Of a stretch of 64,000 bases of DNA, positions 1 to 61,123 are shown piece after piece. The notes beneath the pieces were generated by a model that was not told where the DNA came from, did not search any database, and saw only the letters and a list, made by a program, of their open reading frames with translations. The stretch comes from Rhizaria sp. SCN 62-66 (lineage: Eukaryota), in the NCBI GenBank assembly GCA_001724265.1, contig MEDY01000134.1, positions 1 through 64,000 of the forward strand, in the 5' to 3' direction. Both the position numbers and the translations under genes were made by a program. Within the stretch, counting starts at the first letter, position 1; each line of letters begins with the position of its first letter.

Positions 1-2274
1 TGTACACGGTGACCTCAAAGCGCTCAACTTTGTCTGGGGCGTGGAGGCTCAGGATACTCGTCCGAGCGTCAAGGTGTCCGACTTTGGCAACTCGAAGCTT
101 CACGAGACTGCGAGGAGTCTGTCAGTGACCCCTGGTACGTTTAATATTGACGAATTAATTTCGATTTTCTGATAACGAAATAACATATCCAATACTAAGT
201 TTGTGTTATTTAGCTTTCTCTCACCTTTTGATTGATTATCTTCTCGCTTCACATGCGCGCGATAGTCTCGTCAAATACGGGCACGGTGGGATGGATGGCA
301 CCAGAGCTGTTGAACTTGACCTCCCGGCAGACGGCGAAATCAGACGTCTATGCGCTGGGCATGACTCTGTACGAGATTGCGTTTGGTGTTATGCCTTTTG
401 CGAACCTGCCTTCCAATTTGGTCCGGTCCTCCGTGCTCGGAGGTGCACGGCCCACAGTTGACATTAGTGACTTTGACGACGTGAAGAATGACGCGTTCCT
501 GTCAGGCACGGAGCCAATGCCGGAGCTGATTGAGATGATTCGTAACTGCTGGGACGCTGACAGCAACAAACGGCCTCACATCGATGCTGTCCGCGAGAAG
601 ATCGACGGACTTCCCAGCGATGAACGTGCCGTTCGCGACTTCATGCTAAAGATTCTTGGCCGCAGTCCACCTCCGCAGCAGCTCTCTGTTAGTGGCGCAG
701 ACTTCGCAACGCGTGCCAGCCCGGCCATTATTCGGCAAACGTGTTCGGATGACTCTGGAGCCGTAAGCCTTGAGAACGTGACTCCTGTGACCGAGCCTAC
801 CCCCGCGAAGTCAGGCAGCATTCGCGCTACCGCGCCGGGCTCCAAAGCCTCGGGCTCAGCACTGGGCCAGTCAGAGCAATATACTGCTGCCGACGACGAA
901 GAGGAAGGAGGGACTTTAGCTGTCAAGTCAGATTTTGTCACCTCTACAGCAAGCCCAAGCCAGAGGCCCTTTGCCGTGAAGCCAGCGCAGAACATGCATC
1001 TGCTGCCGGTGCCTGTCTCGCAGCAAGCGCGCGGCAACGACTTAACGCAGGAGGGTGTGTACCGGTTGCAGCAAGTGACGAAAGCCCACTCTTACGCGGA
1101 CTCCAGTGATGTCCAGTTTGACGTCATCTACGCGTCGCCGTCGCCGACCGGCATCGTGGGCAGCTCTTCGACGTTGAATGCGCCAAGTGTGCCGCAGCGG
1201 CAGAGCTCGGGGCCGATCTCGCTCGATGCACTGACTGTGGCCGCTAATCGGGGTGACACCGATGCGATTCGTCAGCTTGTGCACTATTACACGCAGCCCG
1301 AGTCGGGCCGCTATAGCGCGTTTGACGCCAAGAAGTGGATGAAGAAGTTGGTCGACGTTGACGGAAGTTTCAACTACGAGTGCGCGCTTTGGCTCATGTC
1401 GCACAAGCTTGACTTGGACGATGCACATTACTTCTTACAAACCGCCTTTGCGCTGGGCCACCCGCGTGCAGAGGGCGCGCTGGCGGCGCTCGAAGCTGAC
1501 CGTGCTCTGGCGCGCAAAACAGTGGATTCACTGAGTGACGCTCAAAAGAACGACATTGTTAAACGGTTATAGCGTGGCATTGAGGCCGGTGACACCGCGT
1601 CAATGTTTACTCTTGGCCGCGCAATGCACGACGGGCTTTTCGGCCTCAGTAAGAACAAAGAGGCAGGGAATGCAATGATGCTGCGTGCTGGACATGCCGC
1701 GGAAGGCGAGGACTTCTACGGCCCCGCGGCTGCGTACTACGCGAAGAGGAAGCACTCTGCGCCTCATCTCCGGGCTGCGGCAGAGGCGGGGCAGACCGAA
1801 GCTCAGCTCTCTCTGGGCGAAAACATCGCCGGCAGCGGCGACCACGTCACAGGGCTTAAGTGGGTCCACATCGCCGCCGATGCAGGCGACGTGTGGGCTC
1901 TGATTTGTCTCGCCGAGATAAGCTTCAACGGACTGTACGGACAGCCGCGTAGCACAACCGACTCGTTTGAGTATGCGTTCCGCGCGAGCTCGACGGAACA
2001 CCCCGCCGGGCAGACGGAACTGGCGATGCACTACGTGCTTGGGGCGGGCACCGCGCAAAACCAGAGGCTCGGCGCGGGTATGCTGCAGGATATCGTGAAT
2101 CGGACGGGCAACGACGAGGCCATCTACTGGCTCGCTAAGTGTATGGCTGAAGGATGGGGCGTTACGCGAAATTTGCGAGACGCCAAAGCTTTGCTGCAAA
2201 ACGCAGTACGTTGCGAGAAAGTTATGGATTTGTTTCGTCTCATTGACAGTTACCAAAGCAGGAGTCCCATGTGA
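1..2274 (+). CDS. TKL-type Ser/Thr kinase plus Sel1-like repeats, 5'-partial; exons <1-134 and 266-2274; one in-frame TAG at 1570-1572 (nonsense allele/pseudogene or readthrough)
   Basis: Frame 2 from base 2 reads VHGDLKALN...VKVSDFGNSKL. A phase-1 intron 135-265 (GTACGT...ATAG) joins it to VSSNTGTVGWMAPE...KSDVYALG. After a linker come Sel1-like repeats, which continue in the same frame past the TAG to TGA at 2272-2274. Clear paralogue of 13290-16663. Confidence 0.85.
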
Positions 2275-13289: not shown

Positions 13290-16200
13290 TTACCAGAACG
13301 AAGGCTTGAGCAGCTTATCAAGTCGCGCCATGGCTCCGGGATGCTTTTCGCAGATTCGCGAAAGAATCGAGATCGCCTTGTCCTTGTCCTTCTTCACACC
13401 GAGGCCGTCGGCATAGCACAGTCCGGCCTGGTAATGCGCCTCAGTCCAGTCGGGCATCGTCTCAGCAGTGCGCAAAATCAGCTCTGCGGCGCGATTCTTG
13501 TTCGTGGAAACGCCAATGCCGCGCATGTAGCACTGCGCCAGCGCCATTGCGCCTTCAGGTACGCCCTTTTCATTTGCTTGCCATGCCAGCTTAAACGCTC
13601 GCACCTTATCCTTGATGAAGCCGTACTTGCCTTCCATTGTGAGCATCGCGACTTTGGCCATTGCGCGTCCCGAGCCGTTTTCGACGGCGGTGGTCCACCA
13701 CCACATCGCGGCGTTGATACGCTCACGGCTTTCGCACTCATTGCCCAAAAGGAACTGTGCATCCACAATGCCGATTTCTGCTGCAGTCTGCAAATGCTCG
13801 AACGAACTCTTCTTCTCACCATAGTACGCTTGCGCAGGTCCATACGGAATTGCGCAGCTGCCTGCTTTAAGCTTAAGCATACGTCCACCCTGTTCGTCAA
13901 TTTGCAGCCCAAAACGTCCCAGTTCGCGGGCGCAGCCAAGCTCGAACATTGCTGCAGCGTCACCATCATCGGCGCCTTGCTGCAGCCGCTCGGTCAAGTT
14001 ACGAGCGCGCTCGTCGTGTTCCATCATCTCACCACAATTAAGACGCAGCGCGGCTAACGCGGCCAGCGCGCCACTGGCTTTGACGTAACCTGACACTTGC
14101 GCCCGTTGCAGCCACATCTCGGCCTCATAGAACTCAGTACCGCGCGCCATAAGCCACAGGGCGCACTCGTACGCACCTTGTGCGCACATCGCCGCCAGTT
14201 GACGCATCAAGGCAAGCGCGCGAGCCATGTTGTACATGTCCCAGTGGCCAGTGCTGTAGATGCGCACGTGCAGACGCAGTGCATCAAGAGAACCTCCGGC
14301 AGCCGCTTTTGCAAATAAACTCGCAGCGTTTGCACCCGAATGCTTCGAATAAGCACCGCCAAAAAAGCGTTTGCCATCGTTGTAAGCATCAATGGCAACT
14401 GATGTCGGTACCGGGTTATCCAGTGGCAGCTTGGCAATTTTATGGGGCTTCGACGCAGCTGAAGGTCGTGATGGCTTCGGCGGCGGGAGGCGCAGCGGCG
14501 CAGCCCCAGAAAAGGGGTTATCTGTCTCATACGGCGGTGGCGGTGGTGGCGGAGATTCATCTTTGCCATCTTGTTGTGGCGGCAGCGGCAAAGAGTCGCC
14601 CCAGGCGCCGCTCCCAGAGGGTGGTATCTGCGGCAACGGCATAATGGGGCGCGGCGACGCAGGACGGCGATGTGATGGCACAGCAGGCACGCCGAGCAAG
14701 ACTGCCGGTGCAGCAGGCACAGCTGCTGCGGACGCGGATTGGCTGATGATATCGAGCATCAGCGCGCGGACACTACTCTCGTCGCTTGGTAGATCCTCAA
14801 GTCGTTCCATAACTTTGTCAGCTGAAGGGCGAGACTTCCGGTCAGCAGCCCAGCAGTCAGCGATCAGGCTGAGCATTGCCGGCGACGGCTCTGTTCCAGA
14901 CAGCAGCGAGGGGAGCCCGTCGTCGTCGCCGTCGTAGTCGCTTAGGTCCAGCGAAGGGCGCGAGCCACTTGTCACCACTTCTTTGATCTGCGCGTTATTC
15001 ATCCTTTTGAATGGCGCGACACCGAACGCGATTTCGTACAGCGTAATTCCGAGTGCGTACACGTCCGACCGTGAGTTGTGGCCCAAACCGTTCATGAGGA
15101 GCTCTGGAGCAAGCCAAGCTGTTGTGCCTGATACGGAGTCTGTGTGCATAAAGACACAATAAAACGTATACGTACACACGAACAAATAATGAATTAGTTG
15201 AAACTAATGTTAGACGGCAACACGTCAACGCAATTCAAACAATGAACAAAAAAACAAACAACTTAAGCAACGATGTAACGCTACAAAGGAAGTACATGCA
15301 CAACATAATCAAAGGACATTGCAAACGAAAGATACGTACGATTACTTGAGCCAGTGGCAACCGACATGCTTTGCAGTGTTGACTGCAGACGCGAGTTGCC
15401 AAAGTCGGAGACCTTGACTACGGCGGTGGAGCCATGTCCCGCAACGTTCCAGAGAAAATTGAGTGGCTTGATGTCACCGTGTACAATATTTTTCTCTTTG
15501 AGAAACTGCACGGCGCAGGTCACCTGCCGCGCCAGCCACACGCGGCCCGCAGTAGGAACAAAACGATAGCCCTTGTGACCAAGCACGATGTTGAGAGAGC
15601 CAGCGAAGAGCTCCATCACGATGGCCATCCTGCCGCCCCTGCCGCCGCCAAAGGCGGTGTTGCCGGTAAATGGCGTGACAGTGAGACCACGGCAGCGCAC
15701 AACGTACGGAGACCGCAGGTTATAATGCACTTTAAGTTCTTCCATCACCTCATGATCGTGTTGCAGCGCATCAGCATTGGCGTCAAGCACTTTGAGCGCT
15801 ACTGCAACAGGCTCAGCAGACCCATCTGTGGGGGCGTACAGTGCGCGGTACACGCTTGCATAGCCACCGCGTCCGATAAAGCCCGCGCCGTGAAAGTCAT
15901 CGTACTGCAGCGTTGGGATATCTAATGGCTGCGATTTGCGCGTATCAGCCACGGGGATCGCAGCCACGGGTGAACTAACGGTATTGCCCACAAAAGTCAC
16001 AATCGAGAGAACTATTGTGTCTTTGATTTCTGCAAGACGCTTATGTAAAGTTTCAAATGTCTCCTTGATACCACTTGATAACACGATCCGGACAAGTGCA
16101 TTGCGCTTCTCTGTTTTAGTTAAGTAATCCTGACAGTCGCTTAGCACCTCTAGAAGATGTTCCAAAGCCATCCGATTGTTCTCAACAAGAGGCTTTTTCA

Positions 16201-16663
16201 TACCGTTGATGATAGCTACAAAATAGAAATAAACATGTGGCTGAACATGTGAGTTAGCGTTGTGCTCAGTGACTTTTTTATCGTTGAAATGCTAGCATTC
16301 TAGCGCAACACCAACAAGCATAATCAAAAACGACACGCAGAAACTGAATCGGGGGCGCAGGCTGAAATTGTTGAGCAGCTGTACAGAGCAGCTGTACACA
16401 CACTCTGTGTTGCGGGACTCGTCGAGTGTGCGTCGTGACAAACGCAACCGTCACAGCTTGCACACAGCTGGAAAGAAGCGGCCATCATACTGCCAACGGT
16501 GTCGTGTTGTTGTCATTACCTTGTACTCTCTATGAACACACGTACCCATGATGATTTTCACATCATTTCTCAAGGCGATGGCCTCCTCAGAATTACTCCG
16601 CTCGGTTTGCACAGCGTCATAGATGCGTTTTGCAACGTCAAAGGCCTTAATGAGCAAATCCAT
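13290..16663 (-). CDS. MLKL-like N-terminal four-helix domain + TKL kinase + Pro-rich linker + Sel1-like repeats (947 aa); exons 16663-16546, 16215-15340, 15139-13290
   Basis: Two phase-1 GTACGT introns restore one 2844-nt frame. Kinase motifs: GRGGYASV, VALK, HGDIKPLN, SDFG, GTTAWLAPE, SDVYALG. SLR motifs in the C-terminus. The N-terminal about 110 aa follow the MLKL_NTD-type pattern. Confidence 0.9.
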
Positions 16664-57944: not shown

Positions 57945-59227
57945 GCGAATCAGCGGCTAAGTACGAAGCCCCCGAGCGCAAAGATGCGTGAAAGCGTCTC
58001 TGAAGAGATGAGAGTTTTGGTGTGATTGTTCTATGAGTAACAACATGAGTTGTGATGTCTGTTGTGTGTTTGTTTTTTTCTTACTTACTTAACTGGGATG
58101 AATACACAGAAACACGGATCTATCAAACACGTCTATTGCCATTATTTGTGGCACTATTTGCTCTGAGGCTGCTGCTTGCTCGCTCGACGTTTGTGGTGGG
58201 GCAAGGGGGGCTGTTAGGGAGGAGGTATGACCGACAAGAATTTTATGGGCACGAGATCATTCGATCGTTAACAGCATACACGCTGATGTATCCAATATCT
58301 CCGCACTTGATGTATACAGTTTCATTATATTTTCTCCTATAGCAAGCACCTGTGCACATTGAATCTCGTTTTCTGTTCTCCACAAGCGTCATCGTCATGT
58401 TGAGGAGAGCTTCATTCAGATTCACTGATTACCTTGCTATACGGCATTAAACGCAATATTTCCTATTTGCACCGCACTGTCATGACGCATGTCTTAACGG
58501 ACTTGGTTTAGTTGCTTAGCTAATCGATTTATGCTTGTTCTCTCACCCCTTCTTGACACTGTAGCTTCACTCGCCCGTCGCAAGATAGGAAAACTGGAGC
58601 CTACAACACCGTAGCCGCCCAATTTCCTCTTCCGCGTTGTCTTCTTCAGGCCCCCGCCCGTCCGCCTTACCGCACCCTTTCTCCTCCCTCGTCAACCACA
58701 GCCAAGGGCAAGGGCAGGCAGGCACGGGCAATCCTAATACCACCGATACGCTGAGTTCAAACGCTCCTGTTAACAGCAACAGCAGCAGCCGCGGCAACAG
58801 CAACAACTTGCTCCAAGTTCCCCATCAACAGCAGCAGCAACATCATTAGCGTAATTCATTGTCTCTGTCGGTCTCGTCAGCGTCGTCGGTTTGTAGTGAC
58901 GATCATACCGAAGAGAAGCCTCTCACTGCACGCTACAACAATAACAACAACAGCAGCAGGAGCGCGTACAACAACGCTCAAACTGCTTCGGTTGCCAAAC
59001 AACTCTCTCTAAACAACAACTACGATAACGAGCGCCTCGACGGTCGCAGTAACATTCGTATCGCACCTTTGAACAGCAGCGCGTCTCCACAGCAACATCG
59101 CATCGCAACAATCGCTCCGGTCACTGTCACAGTTACCCAGGCGCAGTTTCTCTCTCTCGTCGACGATCTGAACAACAAGACCAACAACAATAGTCGCAAG
59201 AATAGCGATAGCGTGAGCCTAAGTACG

Positions 59228-61123
59228 ATGAACCGCACTTCGTCTCGGTCCCTGCCCCCCCCGCCCCCCGTTGCCTTAGACAACGTCTCCGCCGCCTCCA
59301 GAGCCTCTGCTGCCCGCGGTGGTGTCGGCGCCACGTGTCCTTCGGTACCTATGAGTGGTGGCAACAGCGCAGGACCCACGGGTACCGTTGTCATCTCCCC
59401 GAACGCGTGGGATGAAGCCTCCTTACGCGCGGTCGGCTGGCGCAGTTACGTCGTCGACGTCGCCCTCGCCGTGGTGTTCGGCGCCGTCGCACTGCTCCAA
59501 CACAAAGACGTCTTCGACGGTGGGCCCCACATCCGCGGCTTCTTTCAGACCGACCAGTCAATTTCCCTCCCTTTCCACGTCGAGGACGCCGTGACGTCGC
59601 CGGAACTCATGGTGTTCGCTGCGCTCATGCCGGTACTCGTGATTATCTTCTTCGCCATTTTCGTCGATAAGGCGTACAAAGACTGGGTGCGGTTCCGCCG
59701 CTTCCTTTGGCGGCCGCTCGCGGCGTTGGTTTTTTGCGAACTCGCCTGCTCGTTAACCACGGATGTCGTCAAAAACATGGTTGGCCGCCTGCGGCCTGAC
59801 TTCATCTCTCGTTGCCAACCTGACTACACACTGCCGGGCGTCGTTGTTGAGCCGTACTCCGGCTACGTCGCACAGCCCTTTGTTTGTACTGGCGACCCCA
59901 AGGTGATCAAAGAAGGCCGCCGGTCTTTCCCCTCGGGCCATTCGTCCGCAGCCTTCGTCGGCGGCACGTACGTACAAAGCAGTAACATTTAAACGTGAAC
60001 AAACCGGCTCTATATGCAATTCTCGAAATGTTAAAACCAATCGTTAGTTTGTGTTTGTTATGGTCTCTATTATGATATAATTTATACTGAGTCTCTGATG
60101 TGTTAATCATTGTCACTTTCTAACCTAGTATGTCTTTTTCCCCTATATTGTTCTTTTTGTAGTTTCACGTCTCTCTTCTTGTTCCAGCGCCTCTTCGCTC
60201 TGGCACTGACGTCGTGGCCCCAGCTTGTGCGCCCCACGCTCTGCTTTGCGCCCCTTCTCGGCGCCGCCGCCATCGCCGTCTCCCGGTCGGCTGACAACCG
60301 TCACCACGCTGGCGACATCGCGACCGGCTCGCTGCTCGGCGTCATCTGCGCGCTGTCGACGCTGCTTTTCTGGCGGTTCACCCCCGATGGGGGCATGGGG
60401 GCGTTTTACCCGGCGCGGGCGGCGCACCCATACACCGACGCGAACGACACGGCTGTCACTGCGCTCTACAGCCACAATAGCAGTAAGAATAACAACCGTG
60501 CATTGGCTGACAACAACGCGAATGCAGCTGACGATGACGCGATTCTCGATGGCGCTGGCGGCAGTACTCTGGCCGTGAGCAGCTCTGGCAGCGCTGGCAT
60601 GGCGCATCGCACAAGCAGTCACGGTGGTGGCCATAACAATGACTTCGACAATAGCAACGACGATGGCTTTCCTGGAATCACCGGTTCTGATGCGCATTAC
60701 TGCGAATACGACGCCTATACCAGCCTCACTTCCGCCCTTCACTGCGGCCCGGAGCCCCCGCTGCGCGTTTCTGCCCTGGGCAACACGGCGGGCGCCGACG
60801 GCAGGGCTTTGTTGCGGGTCACGACGACTGCGGCGCCGGCGACTGGGGCAAACCAAGGCGCTGGAAACTCGTTTGTGGTAGTTGCGGATGCCGAGGCAGC
60901 GGCTGGGATTGCACTCGCACTGCGCAATCCTCACAGCCACGGCCACACCAGTTCACTCCAGCAGCAGCAGCAGCAGCAGGGGCAGAGTCTCAGTGGGAGC
61001 GGAAGGGGGACGAGCTCCGGCTCTGGCGCTGGCTCTGGCTTAGGTCTGGGGCCAGGGTTTGGCTCTGCGTCTGTGAGTGCACAGGGGCAGCAGCAAACGC
61101 GGTTTGGCGGGGATCTGGCGTAA
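59228..61123 (+). CDS. PAP2-family lipid phosphate phosphatase; exons 59228-59967, 60163-61123 (N-terminus may extend upstream toward 58565)
   Basis: Catalytic motifs KNMVGRLRPDF, SFPSGHSS and SRSADNRHHAGD, with transmembrane segments. Phase-2 GTACGT intron at 59968-60162. First in-frame ATG at 59228. Confidence 0.92.

Follow-up and report, generated by a model that had tools for sequence, protein, structure and literature searches.

We propose that UAG is a rare sense codon in the uncultured single-celled eukaryote to which this DNA belongs, with UAA and UGA serving as stops. This reading, which is known here from DNA alone, has in our estimate a probability of about 0.93. The residue specified by UAG is probably glutamate. 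The case in hand is a TAG within a gene for a kinase with Sel1-like repeats in the window, the whole stretch of 64,000 nucleotides that was analysed. It is set here beside stop codon usage in a sample of the 34.9 Mb genome (714 contigs), a tRNA whose anticodon is CUA and the release factor eRF1.

In-frame TAG codons of the window

The window features that bear on the argument are as follows.

Positions 1 to 134, forward strand: 3' end of the upstream kinase exon, with the gene start outside the window (tblastn match to the kinase exon of the paralogue at window positions 2 to 145).
Positions 135 to 265, forward strand: putative intron, GTACGT...ATAG, that would bring the kinase back in frame (sequence and paralogue alignment).
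Positions 266 to 1569, forward strand: C-lobe of the kinase, a low-complexity linker and the first part of the helical-repeat region (Pfam Pkinase, E-value 5.9e-12; paralogue alignment).
Positions 1570 to 1572, forward strand: in-frame TAG between the kinase/linker and the Sel1-like C-terminal parts, a predicted sense codon, most likely for Glu.
Positions 1573 to 2271, forward strand: 233 codons after the TAG with Sel1-like repeats, free of further lesions (Pfam Sel1, 33.5 bits).
Positions 2272 to 2274, forward strand: true stop TGA (reading frame, gene-end tally).
Positions 13290 to 15203, reverse strand: last exon of a paralogous kinase-Sel1 gene, with stop TAA (alignment, Pfam).
Positions 58847 to 58849, forward strand: second in-frame TAG, 5' of a PAP2 phosphatase frame (frame reading, Pfam).

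Apart from the TAG at 1570-1572, frame +1 is open throughout (232-2274), which confirms the observation in the initial annotation that 233 further codons follow the TAG, up to the TGA at 2272. This segment is 33-52% identical to its paralogues, and the Sel1 match is strongest at nucleotides 2116-2205. A search of the organism's own genome with the window gene gave 12 matches, and the seven paralogues that cover the TAG site all have Arg or Gln there. It had been stated that the TAG lies exactly where the paralogue has Gln; the paralogue in the window does have CAG at 13982-13980, but across the family the statement holds only for the three more distant copies and not for the four closest paralogues (42-52% identical), which have Arg. 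Three other members of the family carry TAGs elsewhere, one of them being a frameshifted copy.

The TAG at 1570-1572 is real. An assembly error or a polymorphism was ruled out by contigs from three runs of three different studies, in which the site is unchanged with zero differing letters (depth 35.5 in X2, 6.45 in X4 and 2.5 in X8), one of these runs possibly being the source of the assembly itself and contigs being prone to lose rare variants. This speaks against C/T variation or an error at 1570, which the initial annotation had asked to be checked. In the fourth run compared, X5, the contigs span only positions 1888-2083. The alternative of a short spliced-out intron ending at the AG of this TAG was likewise rejected. 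Over about 320 nucleotides upstream there are five in-frame GT sites, and none is a donor of the GTAC type, the form seen at introns of this genome; the AG is not preceded by a polypyrimidine tract, and the alignment with the paralogues includes the residues just ahead of it.

The family of kinases with Sel1-like repeats is expanded to about 10 loci (window 1-2274 and 13290-16291; L002-L012). Its codon bias is low, and it is rich in TAG, L003 alone having four; one copy, L006, is frameshifted. Locus L009 (G000:C585) is a copy of the window gene, 85-92% identical, whose match is confined to residues 1-192 and 617-657; the middle of the gene, including the TAG site, is thus missing from it. Related rearranged pieces were seen near 2078-2352 in the run contigs.

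The second TAG, at 58847, had been put forward for its shared TAG-CGT context. It does exist, but its value as a coding TAG is low, as the first in-frame ATG of the PAP2 frame lies downstream at 59228. Three more in-frame TAGs precede it, giving four within 58517-58849, one of which is at a probable acceptor (58562). It may sit in the 5' UTR, or the region may be an upstream exon; for these reasons this TAG alone is weak evidence.

Stop codon usage across the genome

To view stop codons on a larger scale, 851,777 nucleotides comprising the window, bulk stretches and targeted loci (2.4% of the genome) were segmented with a Markov model. In the symmetric version of this model all three stops were allowed inside coding sequence at equal cost. 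Among 195,073 internal codons there were 36 TAG, 2 TAA and 3 TGA, numbers that should be read bearing in mind that the model was trained on the output of a first pass in which TAG was permitted and that the sample holds loci picked for having stops. When inspected by eye, the five internal TAA and TGA codons were found in introns, run-ons beyond gene ends or dubious segments, both TAAs resembling an intron or a run-on. The 100 coding-segment ends, in turn, comprised 57 TAA, 43 TGA and no TAG. The share of TAG among stop triplets in non-coding DNA is 21%, which would make zero of 100 ends an event of probability 4e-11; the absence of terminal TAG is thus not compositional. The initial annotation had listed 13 TAA, 6 TGA and 0 TAG among the gene ends of the window. 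Its zero for TAG stands, while the gene set read here (n = 20) has 16 TAA and 4 TGA. When no internal stops were allowed, 19 segments broke at a TAG, and 16 of these were followed by at least 40 open codons. The option of rare UAG decoding raised in the initial annotation is upheld by the internal counts, the absence of TAG from segment ends and the tRNA described below.

The TAG codon amounts to 0.2 per 1000 codons in the 2.4% of the genome that was sampled, and about one in ten of the long coding segments (31 of 293) contains at least one. Extrapolated from this sample, the whole assembly would hold some 1,500 TAG sites. This rarity answers the objection that the long genes of the window are free of in-frame TAG. 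It also makes the change nearly invisible to routine annotation, and rare-codon reassignments may consequently be under-counted in metagenome assemblies of eukaryotes. Stops were present in 14 of 137 kinase matches: five TAGs were exonic, six were intronic or acceptor AGs, and all eight TAA or TGA triplets were intronic. Of 88 TAG candidates, 50 were scanned with Pfam; four TAGs fell at ordinary kinase positions and two more in kinase inserts, most of the scanned candidates having no domain. In a search for DEAD-box proteins, the single TAG among 43 matches was at an intron acceptor and none was exonic. A database protein of this organism, P0354, begins directly behind a TAG. As a separate observation, many kinases lie within very long open frames of 2,000-7,100 codons (L121, L130-L134).

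A tRNA with anticodon CUA and the release factor eRF1

Two loci outside the window are central to how UAG may be decoded.

G000:C84 (L051:1489-1561), reverse strand: tRNA-CUA (cloverleaf, Rfam 58 bits, single copy).
G000:C63 (L048, match 1117-1821), reverse strand: eRF1 gene with 4 exons, 441 codons and stop TAA.

The initial annotation had named a tRNA with this anticodon as something to look for. A pattern search for the anticodon CUA gave three matches, one of which folds as a tRNA. It is followed by a T-run, and its neighbours on both sides fit the same coding model. Compared with the organism's own retrieved tRNAs, its best match is tRNA-Glu(CTC), with 46 of 72 positions identical without gaps. 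Over the acceptor and T arms it shares 26 of 32 positions with Glu-CTC, 25 with Glu-TTC, 20 with Asp, 14 with Gln-CTG and 13 with Gln-TTG. The tRNA has U11-A24, U13-G22 and A46 and lacks base 47, while C36 is lost; in E. coli, U11-A24, U13-G22:A46, the missing base 47 and C36 are the determinants of GluRS (PMC9976931), rules that are bacterial and are applied here to a eukaryotic host. The tRNA-Gln(CTG) of the organism also has U11-A24 and U13-G22 and also lacks base 47. No CUA copy of this tRNA-Gln was found, the five matches in the genome all being CTG. Among the best 19 rows of a comparison with phage records, 10 were annotated, all 10 as tRNA-Glu, at E-values of 0.2-7 and with some duplicates. 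For UUA and UCA, 15 raw and unfolded pattern matches were obtained against 10 for the control. These figures come from a survey in which Rfam scored 63 of 506 candidates and 30 loci were read, with a pattern that is blind to intron-bearing and long-arm tRNAs.

In its C9 and its CCC D-loop, tRNA-CUA differs from the tRNA-Glu genes of the organism, whereas tRNA-Glu genes of bacteria and phages can be aligned with its 5' part. It may therefore be of foreign origin or a product of convergence; the tRNA-CUA pattern was absent from the viral contigs that were searched. The major tRNAs of this organism are present in numerous identical copies, which lie on small contigs (L013-L073); of the A/T-ending readers Glu-TTC and Gln-TTG a single copy each was seen, as of the CUA tRNA.

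A search with the eRF1_1 profile retrieved one eRF1 and one pelota, and a second eRF1 copy was not found. Codon 111 of the 441 codons in this eRF1 is itself an in-frame TAG. The equivalent position is E107 of the human protein, a column in which 107 of 117 homologues have E, nine have D and one has V. The homologue with V is P0005, the closest eRF1 relative (84% identical). The same TAG is present in eRF1 on a metagenome contig (L155), which is identical there. Termination at this codon would delete the catalytic domain. Sequence changes in eRF1 had been named earlier as a possible trace of UAG reassignment, and here the picture is mixed. Against near-invariant columns, the N-domain has T32S, M34V, G57S, T58K, F114V, L124M and K130Q, all of which except F114V fall at columns that are 97-100% conserved. 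P0005 has M34V, T58K and F114V in common with this eRF1, and H at position 130. There are thus changes around the stop-reading pocket, but E55, Y125 and N129, to which Kryuchkova et al. tied the recognition of UAG (PMC3632111), are kept, as are S70 and F131, and L69 is unchanged. For position 32, T32S was neutral in human eRF1 in vitro (Kryuchkova et al., PMC3632111), T32A was lethal in yeast (Blanchet et al., PMC4381064), and T32G in Iotanema has been linked to the loss of UAG recognition (Panek et al., PMC5304391).

In the eRF1 tree, the present sequence and P0005 share a long branch (SH-aLRT 100; stem length 1.69), which marks a fast-evolving eRF1, within a weakly supported group (85) that includes Mataza, a cercozoan, and Luapelamoeba, an amoebozoan. 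Fast evolution together with the substitutions T58K, M34V and F114V common to P0005 suggests that the whole clade may share the code change. Public data include at least one relative (P0005, P0353). The datasets listed as containing this DNA are mostly metagenomes from bioreactors and wastewater, and an RNA dataset was not among them. Two further loci are recorded for their own sake. Ubiquitin (L165:1490-1730, L169, L170) is unusually divergent, with an extra Met-Ser at the start and a three-residue tail, and occurs as monomers; no polyubiquitin junction was found among the ubiquitin copies, two of which are at contig ends. The Ser before the monomer presumably recalls the insertions of rhizarian polyubiquitin. 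Locus L167:1-2100 (G000:C681) holds a frame of 699 codons in which a duplicated repeat at the N-terminus is combined with a ubiquitin-like and a Peptidase_S74 chaperone domain, and is possibly of mobile origin.

Taken together, the following mechanism may be envisaged. A duplicated tRNA-Glu(CUC) would have acquired the anticodon CUA by a change of C36 to A and would still be charged by GluRS. It would pair with UAG and not with UAA, and would beat a weakened eRF1 at UAG. With its UAG-linked residues kept, this eRF1 may still compete there; such residual competition is plausible and might account for a codon that has been lost from gene ends and is yet very rare inside genes. New TAGs would arise mostly from CAG, as a tolerated change of Gln to Glu, and from GAG, as a silent change, and slow or leaky decoding would keep them rare. 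The window gene would then encode a single full-length kinase-Sel1 protein in which Glu occupies the position of the TAG at 1570; this TAG probably derives from CAG. A bolder and rather unlikely extension is that the clade is part-way through the code change, UAG being read as Glu by one tRNA, eRF1 still recognizing UAG in part, and the TAG in the eRF1 gene acting as a feedback switch. Higher eRF1 levels would lead to more termination on its own mRNA. Autoregulation of eRF1 by readthrough is known in plants (PMC5397192). At the measured rate, the estimated chance of one TAG in a gene of 441 codons is about 8%, which makes the feedback part speculative. If true, this would allow the 'ambiguous intermediate' model to be put to the test on a nuclear genome.

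The residue read at UAG and the competing explanations

Glutamate is favoured as the residue since sites under purifying selection and the tRNA were given most weight. Both single-copy conserved sites point to Glu: the eRF1 site described above, and a NEK-like kinase with E at the TAG position in homologues that are 89% and 53% identical. In the column of a TAG in a kinase hinge, E is the commonest residue (21, versus 4 for Q), with D in two paralogues. Other sites are less clear. A CaMK column has Q in 6, K in 5 and E in 1 of 20 close homologues, and a ubiquitin-like copy with several other changes has TAG where its paralogues have CAG. Pfam bits summed over six domain sites were 499.8 for E, 498.5 for Q, 498.1 for K, 493.7 for A and S, 488.8 for Y, 487.3 for L and 484.0 for W, so that E is ahead of Q by 1.3 bits and E, Q and K lie within 1.7 bits.

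The sequence context of TAG was examined at 38 sites, about eight of which were judged by eye to be doubtful or to lie in a broken paralogue. Their flanking residues differ strongly from those around GAA (0 of 5000 resamples) and come closer to those around CAA (median p = 0.13, mean p = 0.003). In a mixture fit, with expectations that depend on the assumed acceptance rates, the Gln expectation was ahead by about 0.5-2 log units, and the best fit was 50-65% Gln-like and 0% Glu-like. The base after TAG (C 17, A 8, G 8, T 5) was near the CAG/CAA pattern as well. However, the mutational supply into TAG is 41% from CAG and 16% from GAG, whatever TAG means, so Gln-like contexts are expected under Glu as well. 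The flanking context thus mostly reflects codon origin, and together with the paralogues it shows that many TAGs arose from CAG.

That UAG is a sense codon for Gln, as in Iotanema and as was proposed in the initial annotation, is doubtful and probably wrong. UAG would then have to be read either by the tRNA-CUA with its Glu-type body, which GlnRS would recharge by way of U35, or by a second CUA tRNA that escaped the search pattern. The Gln-like contexts speak for it, as do CAG in the ubiquitin paralogues, the Q that three paralogues have at the window site and Q in 6 of 20 sequences of the CaMK column, and in E. coli glutamine is known to be charged onto amber tRNAs of other types (PMC9976931). 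These contexts, however, follow from the CAG-biased supply under Glu too, the only tRNA-CUA found has a body of the Glu type, tRNA-Gln(CTG) has no CUA copy, and the two single-copy conserved sites are both Glu. In addition, the middle codon of poly-Gln contexts (n = 1070) was CAG in 597, CAA in 171 and TAG in 2 cases; with TAG 85-fold below CAA, it is no free synonym of CAG. An ambiguous mixture of Glu and Gln, with the Glu-bodied tRNA as a substrate of both synthetases, is less probable still. It would fit a Glu tRNA body and conserved Glu sites alongside Gln-like contexts, as well as the fact that TAG is avoided also where codon bias is weak (19 in 118,947 codons below a GC3 of 0.8, next to 17 in 83,583 at or above it), but the split evidence is already explained by mutational supply.

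Explanations in which UAG is still a stop fare worse. Under the standard code, the TAGs would have come from nonsense mutation of genes that are decaying, and the tRNA would be a pseudogene or a weak suppressor. The frameshifted paralogue L006, with its TAG at an invariant Trp column, and the expanded, TAG-rich kinase-Sel1 family agree with this, and the initial annotation had considered a recent nonsense mutation at 1570. Nonetheless, this is very improbable, because nonsense mutation at a rate giving 36 TAGs predicts 18.5 internal TAA or TGA codons whereas at most five were seen (p = 2e-4), none of the 100 segment ends is TAG, and the apparently sole eRF1 would be cut at codon 111. The programmed, context-dependent readthrough of a UAG stop to give short and long sensor isoforms, suggested by the C after both TAGs of the window, has the least chance of all, given that a common context is absent across the 38 sites, TAG positions differ between paralogues and fall inside kinase domains, eRF1 and many unrelated genes also contain TAG, a dedicated tRNA is present, and UAG was never a terminal stop.

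To our knowledge, UAA and UAG nearly always change meaning together. Of the few nuclear codes in which they are uncoupled, those in the literature examined here have UAG as Leu, Gln or Ser (PMC11687900). McGowan et al. (2024; PMC11687900) list changes of UAG only to Leu or Gln in phyllopharyngean ciliates, to Gln in Protocruzia and to Ser in Scotinosphaera, in all of which UAG is sense and UAA is still a stop, as here; no case of UAG only to Glu was seen in that listing. The present genome, rich in GC and with introns about 130-300 nucleotides long, is unlike that of typical ciliates. Closest in form are Iotanema spirale, with UAG for Gln, and the rhizarian exLh, with UAG for Leu (Panek et al. 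2017, PMC5304391). In both, UAG alone is reassigned, UAA and UGA are stops, and a CUA tRNA is the predicted reader. The GTS motif of eRF1 is altered in Iotanema (T32G) and here (T32S). In the present case, by contrast, the tRNA was found and is of the Glu type, with far lower identity to the organism's tRNA-Gln (14/32 and 13/32) than to its tRNA-Glu (26/32), L69 is unchanged, and Leu, the residue in exLh, is 12.5 bits under Glu over the six sites. Codon usage, tRNA and eRF1 come together here from one genome, which was not so in Panek et al.

The meaning Glu also has precedents. In Oligohymenophorea sp. PL0344, UAG is Glu and UAA is Lys (McGowan et al. 2023, PMC10553269), and ten CUA tRNAs are 69-93% identical to tRNA-Glu (PMC10553269). 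The likeness lies in UAG being read as Glu through CUA tRNAs closest to tRNA-Glu; the differences are that UAA is sense there and the main stop here, that one CUA tRNA (46/72 to Glu-CTC) was found here instead of ten, and that TAG is very rare here. In peritrich ciliates and Blastocrithidia, UAR encodes Glu (PMC11687900, PMC5304391), so that Glu stands at UAG as here, with UAA and UAG coupled there and uncoupled here. The open-access main texts searched yielded no code in which UAG is Glu while both UAA and UGA are stops, and if the residue is indeed Glu, this combination appears to be new to that literature. Were the residue Gln, the organism would represent another independent case of a known code.
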